Origin: Eubacteriales bacterium
Lineage (GTDB): Bacteria > Bacillota > Clostridia > Oscillospirales > CAG-272
DNA length: 64,000 nucleotides
Direction: 5' to 3'
NCBI GenBank assembly: GCA_045646945.1
Contig: JAZRLS010000045.1
Span: forward strand, 3,128-67,127
The notes below the pieces were generated by a model. That model ran no database searches, was not told where the DNA came from, and saw nothing but the letters and a program-made list of their open reading frames with translations. Of this stretch, positions 1,265 to 7,705 are shown piece by piece. Made by a program: the position numbers and the translations under genes. Each line of letters begins with the position of its first letter. Position 1 is the stretch's first letter.

Positions 1265-2599
1265 TTAGGCTTCTATTGGCTCGCTTTTTGCGGCTTTTTC
1301 GTTTTCCTCTTCGTTATCTTCATCCGCAATTACCTTGCGTGTAACAATCGCACGTTCTACCTTATGATCTTGAACGTCGAGAATTTGAATATTCAAAAGC
1401 TCGGTTGAAAGCTCAAAGGTGGATCCATCCTCGGGAATCGAGCCGTAAAGTCCCATTACGAATCCGCTGAAGGTATCCGAGTCGGCGTCGGTGAGTTCAA
1501 TGTCAAGAGTATCCTCAACGTCGGCAATGGAAACCGAACCATTAATCTGCCAACGGTTGTCTTCCAACGCGACAATCGGTTCTAACGTATCTTCTTCTTC
1601 TTCTTCAATTTCGGAAAATTCACCTACCAGACATTCAACGAGGTCAGTGAAGGTAATGATACCGTGGACTCCACCGTATTCGTCGAGAACGATGGCAAGC
1701 GATTCTTTCTTTTCTTTCATATTGCGGAAAAGAACGTCTGCCTTAACGTTTTCGGGAACGAAATACGCGGGCTTGACGGCAAGCTCAAAAATGGCTTCCT
1801 TGGTCTTTTCTTCCAAACGGAAATACTCGCGTGCGTCGAGAATACCGACAATATCGTCAAGGTTCTCTCCGTAGATGGGGTAACGAGAGAAACGGCTGTT
1901 ATAAATGATTGCTTCCCATTCTTCGATCGAAGCGTCTTTGGCAAGCATCGACATTTCGGTACGGTGCGTTGCAATGGCAGCGGCGGAAATATCGTCAAAA
2001 TCAAAAATGTTTTCGATCATTTCCTTGTCATATTCGTCGATGCTTCCGTCCTCGTGCGCTTCGTCTACCAGTGTGAGAAGCTCACCCTCGGTGACAGCTT
2101 CTTCCTCGGCAGGTTTGAAGATCTTCGAGAGAAGTTTTTTCCAAAGCATAAAAATCCAGTTGATCGGCGTCAGCAGTCCCGTGATAAAGCAGAGAATTCG
2201 TGCTACTGCCATCGCAAAGCGTTCAGGCTTTTCCTTGGCAAGGCTTTTCGGAGAGATTTCACCGAAGAGCAGAACAACGATGGTTGTTACAATGGTAGCA
2301 ATCGCAGAATAATATCCTGCTACCGGACCGTTTGCCAAAAGCTGCATAAACCAAATGGTAGCAACCGAGGACAACAGAATATTAACGATGTTGTTTCCCA
2401 CAAGAATCGTGGAAAGCAGTTTGTCGTAGTTTTCCGACATTTTCAAGACGAGCACAGCACGTTTATTTCCTTCGGAGGCAAGATTTTTCATCTTGGTATG
2501 GTTAAACGAGGTGAATGCGGTTTCACTGGCAGAAAAGAAGGCGGAAAACACAAGGCATACGAACATTAAAACAATTTTGAGTAGACTCCCGTCAGGCAT
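1265..2599 (-). CDS. HlyC/CorC (CNNM/DUF21-CBS-CorC) family transporter, probable Mg2+/Co2+ efflux
   Basis: SAFFSASETA, LSTILVGNN and GEISPKSLA (DUF21), tandem CBS domains (FSRYPIY, IVLDEYGG) and a C-terminal CorC domain. Confidence 0.93.
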   Translation of the reverse strand: MPDGSLLKIVLMFVCLVFSAFFSASETAFTSFNHTKMKNLASEGNKRAVLVLKMSENYDKLLSTILVGNNIVNILLSSVATIWFMQLLANGPVAGYYSAIATIVTTIVVLLFGEISPKSLAKEKPERFAMAVARILCFITGLLTPINWIFMLWKKLLSKIFKPAEEEAVTEGELLTLVDEAHEDGSIDEYDKEMIENIFDFDDISAAAIATHRTEMSMLAKDASIEEWEAIIYNSRFSRYPIYGENLDDIVGILDAREYFRLEEKTKEAIFELAVKPAYFVPENVKADVLFRNMKEKKESLAIVLDEYGGVHGIITFTDLVECLVGEFSEIEEEEEDTLEPIVALEDNRWQINGSVSIADVEDTLDIELTDADSDTFSGFVMGLYGSIPEDGSTFELSTELLNIQILDVQDHKVERAIVTRKVIADEDNEEENEKAAKSEPIEA

Positions 2600-2683
2600 A
2601 TAATCTCCTTAAAAATCATCTGTCCGAGGACTTTGTCGGTACAGGGAATGGGTGTGGCAAAAATCAGAAATCAAAATAAGCGC

Positions 2684-2726
2684 AAAAAAGCATAGCCTGA
2701 GCCCATTTCAAGGACGCAGGTTATGC
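2684..2726 (-). terminator. Leader (attenuator) terminator upstream of corC-like gene
   Basis: mRNA GCAUAACCUG-CGUCC-UUGAAAU-GGGCU-CAGGCUAUGC followed by UUUUUU, about 85 nt before the corC start. Confidence 0.75.
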
Positions 2727-2797
2727 GTATTCAGAAACATATTTAAATTGAAAAAATATGTACTTCGACAGTTACCGTCGGTATTGCCGTTGTCCAC
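2708..2797 (-). CDS. Putative 29-aa leader peptide MDNGNTDGNCRSTYFFNLNMFLNTHNLRP (GTG start)
   Basis: AAGGAG SD 10 nt before GTG; the stop TGA falls inside the leader terminator loop. Confidence 0.55.
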   Translation of the reverse strand: MDNGNTDGNCRSTYFFNLNMFLNTHNLRP

Positions 2798-2907
2798 TTC
2801 TGATTTTCTCCTTACGAATTCGGAACGTGTACGTCCGTTAATTTTGTTGCAGGGAAGACAGGTACTTTTCTTGCACGCCGTGTCCCATTTCACAACATAT
2901 CGTTAAT

Positions 2908-2935
2908 ATTATAGCATAAAAAATTTTTTTGTCAA
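2908..2935 (-). promoter_or_regulatory. Sigma-A promoter for corC leader
   Basis: TTGACA-N16-TATAAT with extended -10 TGn on the minus strand. Confidence 0.8.
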
Positions 2936-2970
2936 TAGATTTTATAAATATTTTAAGAGGAAGAAAAATG

Positions 2971-3011
2971 AAAATCGGAGAATTGCGTATTTCACAATTC
3001 TCCGATTTTTT
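2971..3011 (-). terminator. Intrinsic terminator ending the nadE operon
   Basis: AAAATCGGAGAATTG...CAATTCTCCGATTTT inverted repeat. Confidence 0.8.
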
Positions 3012-3264
3012 ATGCTTTTTGTTTGAGTTCGGTTAATGCTTTTGCCAACTGATCGGGGCAAGAAGTGGCTTTAAAGCCGCAACGGATGCCCGAAAGTCGT
3101 TCAATTGCTTCATCGATCGTCATTCCTACGACCAGTGCCGAAACACCCTGCGTGTTTCCGGAGCATCCGCCGATAAATTTGACGGATACGATACGATCAC
3201 CTTCGGTTTCAATATCGATTTGGCGGGAGCATACGCCCTTGGTGCGGTAAGAAATTTGTTTCAT
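3010..3264 (-). CDS. TIGR03905 family TSCPD-domain protein
   Basis: GVCSRQI, GGCSGNTQG and GIRCGFKATSCPDQLA motifs. Confidence 0.9.
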   Translation of the reverse strand: MKQISYRTKGVCSRQIDIETEGDRIVSVKFIGGCSGNTQGVSALVVGMTIDEAIERLSGIRCGFKATSCPDQLAKALTELKQKA

Positions 3265-3285
3265 AAGTTCTCCTGGATGATTTTG

Positions 3286-4167
3286 TTAATGATTCAAAAT
3301 GGGATAAAGACCAATGGCGGTATAGCGAGGATGCTCTGTGAGCAAATAGAGATCGAACGCGTACGCCATTATGCGTGGAAGCTGGAAGGTAAAATAGATG
3401 CGATGTGCACCGTCGTCGTAGAGAATCGGTAGGGAATCTATTTTGATCGGAGTTGCTTCAAAGATCGGAGCCACTCGAAAAATGTCATAGGGAAATTGAT
3501 ACGCTTCCGAAGAGACAAAGCATTCCAGATTCCATTCGGTATTTTTTGGAATTCGGCGGGGCAGATGTTTTCCAACCAAAGCATAACGAACGGTATTGGG
3601 AGAATCCTCTTGTTCGACGGTACAAGTGGCACAAATTTTCAGTTCATAGCGGTCGATCATCGAGTAAAATCCAAAGAGCCTGCCGCTTTCTGTGTTTTCA
3701 ATGGGAAGAATACAAAATTCGCAAAGGTTGTCAAAGACCTCCTCGCACGCATCAGAAAATGAGGAAAGAAATTCAGCTTTTGCCCCCTGAACAAAGGGTT
3801 CAAAGATGGAAAACGCTTCTTCGTTATAGCGATTTCTTACCAAGGCAATTCTTCCGTGGGCACCCGACTGTGTACTTTCGTCATCGTGAAAGCTCGTTTC
3901 GGTGATTAATTCTTTTTGATGGGGGACGGAATTTGACAAACGCGCAAAAAAGCTTGCCCGATCCTCGGCGGATAATTCGTTTTTTGAAAAATCAGCGCAA
4001 AAACGAGTATAAAGCTCAAGCGGAGATGCGTCTTTCTCGGCAAGCAGTGCGCGAATGCAAAGGCCGAGAGAAAGCTCCCGCTGTTGTGTGGAAATTGCGC
4101 TTCGCTCGGAAAATATGCGAACGTTTTCCTTGAAAATCAGCAGTTCCTTTTTTTGATCCATAAGCAT
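3286..4167 (-). CDS. Prephenate dehydratase-like / ACT-like hypothetical protein
   Basis: CILPIENTESGRL resembles PDT GVVPIENSxxG; NTVRYALVGK resembles NxTRFLV; start placed just after the nadE stop. Confidence 0.55.
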   Translation of the reverse strand: MLMDQKKELLIFKENVRIFSERSAISTQQRELSLGLCIRALLAEKDASPLELYTRFCADFSKNELSAEDRASFFARLSNSVPHQKELITETSFHDDESTQSGAHGRIALVRNRYNEEAFSIFEPFVQGAKAEFLSSFSDACEEVFDNLCEFCILPIENTESGRLFGFYSMIDRYELKICATCTVEQEDSPNTVRYALVGKHLPRRIPKNTEWNLECFVSSEAYQFPYDIFRVAPIFEATPIKIDSLPILYDDGAHRIYFTFQLPRIMAYAFDLYLLTEHPRYTAIGLYPILNH

Positions 4168-4172
4168 GCGAA

Positions 4173-6104
4173 TTATTTTAATTCTTCCACGATTTTCATC
4201 CAAGCGGTTGCCATTGCATCACTCGGCATCTGCCAGTCTCCGCGAGGAGAAAAACCGATCGAACCGATCTTCGGTGCATCGGGCAGACAAGAACGCTTGA
4301 ACTGTTGTGCAAAGAAACGGCGGACGAAGTTTTTGAGCCATTTGAGAAGTACCTCGTCGCTGTATTTTCCGTCAAACGCGATCTTCGCCAAGCGGTAAAG
4401 CTTATCGGGAGAATCGCCCCAACGGAGCATATGATAAAGATAAAAGTCGTGAATTTCGTAAGGACCGACGAGATCCTCGGTTTTTTGCGCAATGTTGCCG
4501 TGCTCGTCCGAGGGAAGAAGTTCTGGGCTGACGGGCGTGTCGAGAATATCGCGAAGCACCTCAGCAAGACGCGAAGCACCGTTTTGTTCTGCGTTGTCCG
4601 CGCAGTACGCGATTACGTGGCGAATGAGTGTCTTCGGTACGTCGGCGTTGACACCATACATCGACATGTGGTCGCCGTTATACGTTGCCCAACCGAGTGC
4701 CAGCTCGGAAAGGTCGCCCGTACCGACCACCAAGCCGTTTTCACGGTTGGCAATATCCATCAGAAGCTGTGTGCGCTCTCTGGCCTGTGCATTTTCATAA
4801 ACGACACTGTGATCGTCTTCTTTATGTCCAAGATCGGCAAAGTGCTGACGGACAGACGCGCTGATGTCAATACATTCCAATCCGGTGCCGAGCTCTACGC
4901 AGAGAATTTCCGCATTGGAACGAGTTCTTTTGGTAGTACCGAAGCATGGCATCGTAACACCGAGTACGTCGGAATGAGGACGTCCAAGCAGATCCATTGC
5001 TTTGGTAGCAACGAGGATGGCAAGCGTGGAATCGAGTCCACCTGAAATTCCGATAACACATTTTTTCGAGTAAGAGCGGACAACGCGTTGTGCCAATCCC
5101 TTGGCTTGAATAGTCAGAATGGTTTCGGCACGATGGGCAAGCTCCTTTTGATTACTTGGAATAAAGGGCGCGGAATCGATTTTTCGGGTAAGCTTGGTTT
5201 CTTCGTAGTCGACCGAGAAAAGATTGTTCTTGATGTTTGCGGAGAGGGAAGAGTTAAAGGTGTTGATTCGCTTGCGTTCTCCCTCAATATGAGCAAGGTC
5301 AAGCTCGGTGACGAGAAGCTCTGCATCCTCGGAGAATGCGGTACGCTCCGCAACGATGTTTCCGAGCTGAGCGATCATCGAATGTCCGCCGAACACGAGG
5401 TCGGTGGTCGATTCGCCGTCACCGCAATCGGCGTAGAGATAGGCACAGAGCGAACGTGCCGATTGCGATTCTACGAGCATACGGCGACGAGCTTCCTTTC
5501 CAATGATTTCGGGAGAAGCAGAAAGATTGGCAATGATCAACGCGCCAGCTTCGGCAAGATGGGTCGATGGGGGCGTTGCTGTCCATAGATCCTCACAGAT
5601 TTCAACACCGAATCGAAATGCCGTAAAGTTTTGACAGGAGAAGATTTGCTTTGCGCCAAAGGGCACCGATTGACCGCAGATTTCAACATTCACGGTATCA
5701 CCCGTATCAACCGAAAAATATCTTCCCTCCGAAAATTCACTGTAATTCGGCAAATTTGTCTTGGGAACAATTCCTAAAATTTGTCCATTTTGACAAATTG
5801 CGGCGGAATTATAAAGTTTATCATTGACAACGAGGGGAAAACCGATTATACTTATAGTAGAAGAGTTGTTGGTTCTTGCCAAAAAGTCTTCCAAGGCGGA
5901 CTTTGCCGCGTCAAGAAGGACGCTCGAAAAGAAAAGATCCGAGCAGGTATAGCCTGTCAGGCAGAGCTCGGGAAAAACAAGCAGCTTGACACCGAGTTCC
6001 TCTGCTTCTTTGTGCAGACGCAAAATTTCTTCGAGATTGGCGGACGGATCGGCAAGCGTGACCTTTGGCGTTGCCGTACCGACTTTGATAAAACCGTGTT
6101 TCAT
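4173..6104 (-). CDS. nadE: Glutamine-dependent NAD+ synthetase
   Basis: N-terminal nitrilase domain (FPEL, PK..LPNY.EF.E.R, EICEDLW) plus GISGGLDST, ENAQARER and GTGDLSE. Confidence 0.97.
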   Translation of the reverse strand: MKHGFIKVGTATPKVTLADPSANLEEILRLHKEAEELGVKLLVFPELCLTGYTCSDLFFSSVLLDAAKSALEDFLARTNNSSTISIIGFPLVVNDKLYNSAAICQNGQILGIVPKTNLPNYSEFSEGRYFSVDTGDTVNVEICGQSVPFGAKQIFSCQNFTAFRFGVEICEDLWTATPPSTHLAEAGALIIANLSASPEIIGKEARRRMLVESQSARSLCAYLYADCGDGESTTDLVFGGHSMIAQLGNIVAERTAFSEDAELLVTELDLAHIEGERKRINTFNSSLSANIKNNLFSVDYEETKLTRKIDSAPFIPSNQKELAHRAETILTIQAKGLAQRVVRSYSKKCVIGISGGLDSTLAILVATKAMDLLGRPHSDVLGVTMPCFGTTKRTRSNAEILCVELGTGLECIDISASVRQHFADLGHKEDDHSVVYENAQARERTQLLMDIANRENGLVVGTGDLSELALGWATYNGDHMSMYGVNADVPKTLIRHVIAYCADNAEQNGASRLAEVLRDILDTPVSPELLPSDEHGNIAQKTEDLVGPYEIHDFYLYHMLRWGDSPDKLYRLAKIAFDGKYSDEVLLKWLKNFVRRFFAQQFKRSCLPDAPKIGSIGFSPRGDWQMPSDAMATAWMKIVEELK

Positions 6105-6250
6105 ATGGGAAATTCCTTTCTAAAAAATGTCACCAAAACGGTAATTTCTATCTGATTTCTACCATTTATTATACAGTTTTCTTCAAAAAAATACAATACT
6201 AAATCAAAAACTTTTTCAAAAAAAGCAAAAAAGCATAGGAGAAACAAAAA

Positions 6251-7705
6251 ATGAACAAACTGAACCGCAATTTAACGATGCTGTGCGACTTTTATGAGCT
6301 GACGATGTCCAACGGATATCTCACCGCGGGAATGAAAGATAAGGTCGTTTACTTTGACGTATTTTTCCGCAACAATCCCGATGGCGGCGGATATGCAATT
6401 TCCGCAGGGTTGGAACAGATTGTCGAATATATTAAGGATCTTCATTTTGACGAAGAGGACGTTGCCTTCCTTCGCACCAAGGGATGCTTCTCGGAGGAAT
6501 TTCTGGAATTTCTTCGCACTTTCCGCTTTACGGGTGATATCTGGGCAATTCCTGAGGGAACGGTTGTCTTCCCCGGAGAACCTTTGATGACGGTTCGCGC
6601 CAAGGTGATTGAGGCACAGTTTATCGAGACCTACATTCTGATGATGATCAACCATCAATCACTGATTGCAACGAAAGCCTCGAGAATTGCCCGTTCCGCC
6701 AAGGGACGAGCTGTGAGCGAGTTCGGTTCTCGCCGCGCACAGGGAGCGGATGCCGCGATTCTCGGCGCAAGAGCCGCATTTATCGGAGGATGTAATTCCA
6801 CCGCTTGTACGATTGCAGACGAAGCTTACGGTGTTCCCGCAGGCGGAACGATGGCACATTCTTGGGTACAGATGTTTGATACCGAGTATGAGGCATTCCG
6901 CACGTACTGCGAGATCTACCCCAAGAACGCGACGCTTCTGATTGATACGTATAACGTGATGGAAAGCGGTCTTCCCAACGCGATTCGCGCGTTTAAGGAA
7001 GTGCTTTTCCCCAAGGGCATTACCAAATGCGCAGTCAGAATTGACTCGGGCGACGTGACCTATCTGACCAAAAAGATCCGCAAAAAGCTGGACGAGGAAG
7101 GTCTTACCGATTGTAAAATCGTCGTTTCCAATTCGCTCGACGAGTATATTATCCGAGAACTGATCCGTCAGGGCGCGGAGATCGATGCGTTTGGTGTCGG
7201 TGAAAGACTGATCACGTCAAAGAGTGACCCCGTATTTGGCGGTGTCTACAAGCTTTGTGCGATCGAAAAGGAAGACGGAACTATTCAGCCGAAGATTAAA
7301 ATCAGTGAAAACGTCGGAAAGATCACCACTCCCCACTTTAAGAAGATCTACCGCTTGCGCGGAAGAGAAACGGGAAAGGCAGAGGCAGACCTGATTTGCG
7401 TGCATAATGAGACGATTGATGACAGCAAACCGATCGAGCTCTTTGACCCCGATCATACTTGGAAACGAAAGGTGCTCGAGGACTTTACGGCGACTGAGCT
7501 TCAAAAGCCGATCTTCTTGAATGGAGAGTTGGTCTACGATCTTCCTACACTTGCCGAGATTCGCCGGCACTGCGCTGAGGAGATCGAAGGAATGTGGGAT
7601 GAGGTGCGCCGTTTCACTAACCCGCACAACTATTACGTTGACCTTTCCGAAAAGCTTTGGCAGATCAAGCACGATATGATTGCGGAGCACCGTAAGGCAA
7701 AGTGA
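6251..7705 (+). CDS. pncB: Nicotinate phosphoribosyltransferase
   Basis: DFYELTM, EFGSRRAQG, GTMAHSW, LIDTY, RIDSGD and GGVYKL motifs. Confidence 0.96.
   Translation: MNKLNRNLTMLCDFYELTMSNGYLTAGMKDKVVYFDVFFRNNPDGGGYAISAGLEQIVEYIKDLHFDEEDVAFLRTKGCFSEEFLEFLRTFRFTGDIWAIPEGTVVFPGEPLMTVRAKVIEAQFIETYILMMINHQSLIATKASRIARSAKGRAVSEFGSRRAQGADAAILGARAAFIGGCNSTACTIADEAYGVPAGGTMAHSWVQMFDTEYEAFRTYCEIYPKNATLLIDTYNVMESGLPNAIRAFKEVLFPKGITKCAVRIDSGDVTYLTKKIRKKLDEEGLTDCKIVVSNSLDEYIIRELIRQGAEIDAFGVGERLITSKSDPVFGGVYKLCAIEKEDGTIQPKIKISENVGKITTPHFKKIYRLRGRETGKAEADLICVHNETIDDSKPIELFDPDHTWKRKVLEDFTATELQKPIFLNGELVYDLPTLAEIRRHCAEEIEGMWDEVRRFTNPHNYYVDLSEKLWQIKHDMIAEHRKAK

Follow-up and report, generated by a model that had tools for sequence, protein, structure and literature searches.

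The CNNM/CorC-family gene considered here is preceded by a leader that, judged from its sequence and that of its relatives, is on balance probably a ribosome-based attenuator, through which transcription of a probable Mg2+ exporter would depend on there being enough Mg2+. A short upstream open reading frame (uORF) in this leader is almost certainly regulatory; if so, it is very likely that full translation of the uORF turns the exporter on, and, given both of these, an action of Mg2+ through ribosome stability is only slightly less likely. In the proposed mechanism a terminator would form by default. At low Mg2+ ribosomes would split or stall on the Asp and small-residue codons 2-10, perhaps being lost during a wait on a CGA codon, and so the terminator stem would never be reached. 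At high Mg2+ a ribosome would reach the 5' arm of the stem while RNA polymerase pauses at or before the U-tract, and the hairpin would be blocked for the exporter to be transcribed.

The leader and its probable exporter gene

Coordinates are positions in the window, by which is meant the whole 64,000-nt stretch of JAZRLS010000045.1 that was analysed, and all parts of the leader lie on its minus strand. Transcription is predicted to start near 2901 from a sigma-A-type promoter (2935-2908; TTGACA and TATAAT with a 16-nt spacer and an extended −10 TG, 12/12 consensus positions), and 59 of the 66 related CNNM leaders described below have a promoter-like site with at least 10/12 consensus positions no more than 170 nt upstream of the uORF. 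The 5' segment of the leader (2814-2901) folds into two weak hairpins, is not conserved and is probably dispensable, its first 90 nt having no match beyond the closest genomes in a DNA search of 61 genomes; the −10 lies 31 to 122 nt (median 47) from the uORF start in relatives. The Shine-Dalgarno sequence (SD) AAGGAG (2813-2808) stands 10 nt before the GTG at 2797 which starts the uORF of 29 codons (2797-2708, stop TGA at 2710-2708). Asp at positions 2 and 7 are the sole acidic residues of the peptide, and it has no Pro. Codons 2-10 (2768-2794), made up of Asp and the small residues Asn, Gly, Thr and Cys, are the predicted ribosome-destabilising stretch, and the CGA AGT of Arg11-Ser12 (2762-2767) is kept at the nucleotide level.

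The predicted intrinsic terminator (2684-2726), assigned from fold and conservation, consists of a stem at 2726-2690 and a run of six U at 2689-2684. Its hairpin, which contains bulges, folds with −19 kcal/mol (z −3.9 relative to 200 shuffled sequences); a strict terminator scan does not list it. Codons 24-29 of the uORF overlap the 5' arm and the stop codon is within the 7-nt loop. The earlier note had read the promoter, SD, GTG-started uORF, terminator and CNNM/CorC gene from this DNA, with the last uORF codons in the 5' arm, and all of these are present. Further down a second small hairpin (2644-2620; z −1.3, not significant) lies between terminator and gene, and a related hairpin word is present in 19/61 leaders. 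A scan for a second promoter after the terminator gave none at the focal locus and one in 3/61 leaders, and Rfam gave no family at gathering score within 2000-4000.

The gene itself (2599-1265, minus strand, with a conserved SD at 2605-2610) encodes 444 aa with CNNM (PF01595), CBS and CorC_HlyC domains by Pfam, and the uORF is an ORF separate from it that ends 108 nt upstream. The closest solved relative of the protein in the PDB is 7m1t (E 1e-54). The direction of Mg2+ transport is taken from data on the CNNM/CorC family, and the site of Ser-x3-Ser, Asn and Gly-Glu given in the available text of the same source (PMC7875539) appears to be retained, going by motif spacing in the 7m1t alignment. 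The gene is thus likely to be a Mg2+ exporter.

Around the locus, a TSCPD-domain gene (3010-3264) lies just upstream of the CNNM promoter and recurs as a neighbour in several relatives, its own terminator (3009-2971) beginning right at the stop codon. Beyond it are a 305-aa ORF (3286-4203) with only a sub-threshold match to prephenate dehydratase and, within 4173-7705, a Gln-dependent NAD synthetase gene (minus strand) divergent from a nicotinate phosphoribosyltransferase gene (plus strand). Just downstream of the CNNM gene is a 259-aa membrane-like ORF (334-1113) with no Pfam match. Two further CNNM genes stand in tandem elsewhere in the same genome (G000:C2:7363-9980), of which the first is without a uORF and its protein begins Met-Gly-Ser-Asp-Ser.

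A leader peptide family before two kinds of transporter gene

In 63 of 72 genomes of the genus a search found CNNM genes, and these gave 77 non-redundant 5' regions. A uORF filter returned a candidate in 70 of these; five were dropped as non-leaders or in the wrong frame and one was re-added in the right frame, and so the uORF is present in 66/77 CNNM leaders of the genus, each with an SD-like word before its start, as required by the filter. The leaders are mostly kin and so are not independent samples in the counts given here. By the DNA search of 61 genomes the conserved block of the leader runs from the SD through the terminator, and among 14 aligned leaders the base of the terminator stem and the U-tract are invariant.

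Asp accounts for 28% of codons 2-10 over the 66 leaders, the rest being mostly Asn, Gly, Ser and Cys. Two to four acidic residues with small residues around them occur within codons 2-8 in 61/66, and Pro occurs in 6/66. The mean residue volume over codons 2-10 is 101, compared with 142 ± 12 for the genome, and N-terminal residues as small as those of the focal uORF are found in 2 of the 1242 SD-led ORFs of its own genome. Downstream of this stretch the hexamer CGA-AGT is in frame in all 48 CNNM leaders having it, at six offsets, and in 71/71 leaders at eight different offsets when 23 leaders of mgtE genes are included. The first Arg is encoded by CGA in 57/60 CNNM and 33/42 mgtE leaders, while CGA usage in the genome is 14.6%. 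The whole uORF spans 13-42 codons in relatives and the peptide after CGA-AGT varies freely. By these comparisons of sequence the uORF is under frame selection, and, because the distance from stop to stem keeps to a limit while the tail and the stop geometry vary, selection acts on the N-terminus and on the reach of the ribosome and not on the tail. The conservation of the uORF across CNNM upstream regions, which the earlier note had put forward as a check, is therefore borne out in the 66 of 77 leaders, with their Asp and small-residue start and in-frame CGA-AGT. L101 and L018 each have one more SD-led ORF, a very short one, in the stretch from the terminator to the CNNM start.

The same kind of peptide precedes genes for MgtE importers. 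mgtE genes were gathered by a protein search blind to leaders, except for three loci from an earlier pattern scan, and 45 of 63 have a leader ORF by the filter, about three of these being doubtful. A further 42 mgtE loci yielded 21 leaders, 19 of them with the CGA. Start codons differ, GTG beginning 56/66 CNNM uORFs versus ATG in 38/45 mgtE leaders. By sequence, the uORF peptide family is common to CNNM and MgtE leaders, which are wired differently, and since like uORFs precede exporter and importer genes in different folds it is likely that the ribosome serves as a Mg2+ gauge, with export on and import off. Neither this importer counterpart nor the near-invariant CGA codon was among the observations of the earlier note. 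The mgtE gene of the focal genome (L255, G000:C16) has neither a leader nor an M-box, and directly follows another gene, which from its motif we take to be like lactate dehydrogenase.

The association with these two gene families was also seen when starting from the leader. A pattern scan of named genomes gave at least 120 loci, mostly chance matches within an ABC-ATPase gene of Collinsella that are not leaders; among the 80 flanked matches listed, all 28 SD-led short ORFs precede CNNM (25) or MgtE (3), and among the matches listed the three before MgtE come from Lachnospiraceae-type records and near-identical leaders from Clostridia or Eubacteriales bacterium records. A looser pattern applied across the class, with 42 loci examined (30 as given and 12 chosen as leader-like), found six leaders before CNNM or MgtE and two CNNM N-termini, and the remaining matches were mostly chance or antisense tRNA. 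The uORF is present in 18/70 class-wide CNNM genes and in 2/30 from the phylum outside the class. At 31 related loci no Rfam family reaches its gathering score in the leader, and elsewhere only tRNAs do.

In some genes the acidic start is part of the transporter. Of the 52 class-wide CNNM proteins whose genes are without a uORF, 31 start with Met-Asp, versus 42 of 1242 genes of the focal genome, and in four loci (L097, L100, L315 and L316) the leader-type start is the CNNM protein's own N-terminus, with CGA-AGT in L315 and L316. A Pro-containing variant of the leader, near in sequence to the beginning of E. coli MgtL and with no clear terminator, occurs in a distant CNNM clade (L098, L099, L102, L104, L320 and L321), and in L098, L102, L320 and L321 it looks like a short MgtL. 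A shared origin of uORF and in-frame forms is hinted at, the SD spacer of the first of the tandem CNNM genes noted above resembling that of these four Pro-type uORFs.

Quite what the ribosome responds to on such a peptide bears on the best surviving alternative, that the wiring is as proposed and the signal is another one, elongation health or the decoding of CGA, with Mg2+ one input or none; charging or editing of tRNA-Arg(ICG), polyamines, K+ and growth rate would be candidates. CGA is the most invariant feature of the leaders, a tRNA-Arg(UCG) was not found in the focal genome, which is 96% complete, and ribosome destabilisation is not specific to Mg2+ (bioRxiv 2021.02.02.429294, in its available text). 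Against this the motif precedes two unrelated families of Mg2+ transporter in opposite layouts, and there is a single Arg and no run of them. CGA need not be slow either, because a tandem run of four CGA codons caused no slowing of a B. subtilis reporter (PMC10454642, available part). Another signal therefore seems unlikely, though less so than the other alternatives below. The CGA was considered as well as the site of an elemental polymerase pause, the consensus for such pauses having G at −10; this fits 39/48 CNNM but 5/23 mgtE leaders and is not convincing.

Ribosome reach and the wiring of the terminator

A hairpin with a U-tract follows the uORF in 61/66 CNNM leaders, and in all 61 of these the stop codon is either at most 13 nt short of the stem or beyond that point (one leader, L009, entered this count with a wrong hairpin and has a value of −6 with the right one). 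In the other two frames the same holds for 28/61 and 42/61, and 35 would be expected with shuffled spacers. Counted from the uORF start, the terminator falls in each of the three frames. The stop-in-loop geometry on which the earlier note had built holds at the focal locus and in 9/61 leaders in all, the stop being before the stem in 31/61, and so it is the limit of 13 nt, and not the loop, that is the conserved feature.

The mgtE leaders are different in this respect. Their stop is within 13 nt of a stem in 7/25, or in 2/18 once five hairpins not forming in naked RNA and two lying more than 100 nt away are excluded, and a terminator is absent from 20/45. Among the further 21 mgtE leaders nine have a hairpin and U-tract, of which four form, with 0/4 within 13 nt. 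When leaders are grouped by clusters of their proteins, the CNNM side taking in 10 class-wide leaders, the 13-nt limit holds in 13/13 CNNM versus 2/14 mgtE clusters at 70% identity, in 7/7 versus 2/10 at 60% and in 2/2 versus 0/3 at 50%.

These counts bear directly on whether attenuation is conditional at all. RNA polymerase might outrun the ribosome, as the uncoupled transcription reported in Bacillota would allow, and then the terminator would be a fixed and leaky damper, with the uORF acting post-transcriptionally on leader stability or setting a basal level. Ordinary terminators are as near to stops, 44% of the 271 predicted in the focal genome lying within 13 nt of one, that after the neighbouring TSCPD-domain gene among them, and so closeness by itself is no proof of blocking and a pause of the polymerase is required, for which the leaders gave no convincing site; moreover in 14/61 leaders the stop-to-stem distance is 9-13 nt, at the edge of the ribosome footprint, where the footprint model leaves the hairpin intact. 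However the ceiling in 61/61 is far above the frame and shuffle controls, and together with the mgtE contrast it requires selection on the reach from ribosome to stem, which makes a fixed damper improbable, somewhat more so than another signal.

In the footprint model a ribosome at the stop abolishes the terminator in 43/61 leaders and keeps it with P>0.5 in 18/61, an outcome that follows from the imposed mask. With naked RNA, and equally with a ribosome placed at codon 6, the terminator forms in 59/61 leaders. The latter speaks against a ligand-induced arrest of the TnaC or CruR kind, in which the Asp/Cys peptide would capture a cation inside the exit tunnel, so that the held ribosome would cover the stem, as in 59/61 models the terminator still forms when the ribosome is stopped at codons 4-8. 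Such an arrest would settle the timing problem, and Cys is found within the first 13 codons of 54/66 CNNM leaders, but it interchanges with Ser and Gly and neither the tail nor the stop context is conserved; this alternative we regard as quite unlikely.

Less likely still is that a riboswitch or a protein-bound RNA motif is at work and the ORF is incidental. CGA-AGT and the terminator base are kept as nucleotides, and a small hairpin is possible over codons 6-11 of the focal uORF. Yet a conserved hairpin over the uORF core was rejected, the hairpin being more stable than synonymous shuffles in 0/34 CNNM and 0/21 mgtE cores and absent in some; Rfam has no match, every length change preserves the frame, and no pairing links the uORF core to the terminator in the CNNM leaders. 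The Asn-starvation attenuator, which the earlier note had kept as an alternative on account of the seven Asn codons (Asn makes up 16% of codons 2-10 across the CNNM leaders), has a negligible chance of being right and is abandoned, as the CNNM peptides have 0-8 Asn with tandem Asn in 6/66, 15/45 mgtE peptides have none, and four of the seven focal Asn fall in the unconserved A+T-rich tail.

For the preferred reading, ribosome-based attenuation read out at the terminator, the absence of an alternative RNA stem in the CNNM leaders matters, 0/59 having significant pairing (p<0.05) to the 5' arm of the terminator. The MgtE leaders have other devices. A start-hiding helix, in which the uORF SD and start pair with the uORF tail, beats shuffles in 33/44 mgtE versus 2/65 CNNM leaders and is not present in the focal one; in sets gathered later the figures are 11/21 mgtE versus 4/22 class-wide CNNM leaders. 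In 7/18 mgtE leaders the uORF shows antiterminator pairing to the 5' arm of the terminator that is stronger than in shuffles (p<0.05), and three of them (L225, L231 and L237) have matched changes across all three strands of the pairing. With the sensor peptide inside a start-hiding helix and with antiterminator pairing the opposite output is predicted. An equilibrium test of mgtE SD accessibility gave no direction of control, with no signal from the terminator-less leaders, and a post hoc variant was weak (6 up and 2 down of 36 mgtE leaders). Because the uORF stop lies 7-26 nt before mgtE in L270, L272 and L443, a positive coupling is suspected in these.

The different wiring of the MgtE sister leaders lends support to a Mg2+-linked signal and strengthens the polarity, inverse to that of mgtL, which the earlier note had proposed and which the comparison favours. 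Of its attenuator reading, the comparison supports an acidic uORF selected for frame, a terminator within ribosome reach and the lack of an antiterminator; that Mg2+ is the signal and drop-off of the ribosome the sensing step is what we infer from these. A wider reading, about as likely to be right as wrong when its parts are taken jointly, is that in Clostridia a single family of leader peptides that destabilise the ribosome (Met-Asp-small residues-Arg(CGA)-Ser) is a modular Mg2+ gauge used in three forms. It would turn CNNM exporters on through a bare overlap with the terminator, turn MgtE importers off through a start-hiding helix and antiterminator, and in the third form be fused to the exporter's own N-terminus, with the CGA as a working part of the sensor that is shared with MgtL.

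Relation to known magnesium leaders

In its available text PMC12421838 describes the mechanisms that control mgpA and corC as unclear, and the M-box accounts for importer control in just 20/100 Clostridia sampled. Against this background the 130-nt leader is a predicted high-Mg2+ on-switch built on the sensing principle of MgtL; it pairs with a predicted importer off-switch in the same class, and the leaders highlight an overlooked CGA codon found in mgtL too. The attenuation model also requires coupling of ribosome and polymerase in a phylum where coupling is doubted, and, if the modular gauge is true, the leader of the exporter would offer a natural case in which to test that coupling in Bacillota.

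Leader peptides of clostridial CNNM or mgtE genes were not found described in the literature outside the supplements of PMC11109978, PMC5737381 and bioRxiv 2021.02.02.429294, which may bear on novelty. The main texts of four surveys of non-coding RNA motifs (PMC11109978, PMC5737381, PMC8632094 and PMC6429828) are without such a leader and the supplements of PMC8632094 and PMC6429828 contain no CorC or MgtE terms; the mgtE motif in the main text of PMC11109978 is confined to Thioalkalivibrio and was set aside.

The M-box (ykoK, RF00380) controls mgtE in B. subtilis through a Mg2+-responsive terminator (PMC8844918, available part). There the RNA itself binds Mg2+, and its covariance model has no match at the focal locus or in the focal genome. 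Attenuators of the trp and his type have a run of regulatory codons and an antiterminator, and the CNNM leaders show neither. The TnaC and CruR arrest leaders keep residues at a fixed spacing from the stop, in contrast to the CNNM tails, which are unconserved and end in any frame.

Two systems with CorC-type genes come closer. In E. coli, N-termini of Asp and small residues reportedly abort translation (bioRxiv 2021.02.02.429294), and for YbeX (CorC), with a destabilising stretch likewise of Asp and small residues, it is proposed that efflux is raised when Mg2+ stabilises ribosomes (available texts of bioRxiv 2021.02.02.429294 and PMC12421838). In YbeX the stretch begins the protein itself, whereas the focal leader has it in an ORF of its own, which would be coupled to a predicted terminator. 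YoaL, the leader of mgpA/yoaE in Salmonella and E. coli, is likewise a uORF; the CorC-domain gene after it is induced by high Mg2+, and expression falls when the YoaL start is lost (PMC12421838, available text). It has 52 aa, overlaps the gene start and is basic at its N-terminus, whereas the focal uORF is acidic and non-overlapping, and the CNNM leaders have a predicted terminator where the available text of PMC12421838 describes none for YoaL.

The closest likeness is to MgtL (mgtA) and CorL (corA) of E. coli and Salmonella, likewise short uORFs in the leaders of Mg2+ transporter genes, in which translation efficiency is the readout of Mg2+ (PMC11552253, available part). Their N-termini are marked by acidic residues and Pro, a cluster which the CNNM peptides may share in its acidic part. 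In E. coli mgtL the first Arg is CGA, at codon 10, as in the clostridial leaders, and the uORF-SD-hiding helix shared by the clostridial mgtE leaders is similar to the stem A which the available part of PMC11552253 gives for the leaders of mgtA and corA. By sequence the CNNM leader would be MgtL-like in its working, but of two features that define MgtL the enclosing helix is absent and Rho-dependent repression on full translation is not predicted. Here the gene is likely to be that of an exporter, Pro is mostly absent from the peptide, there is no alternative stem, a predicted intrinsic terminator would take the place of Rho, and, with its hairpin and U-tract in the reach of the ribosome, full translation is predicted to turn the gene on and not to repress it.
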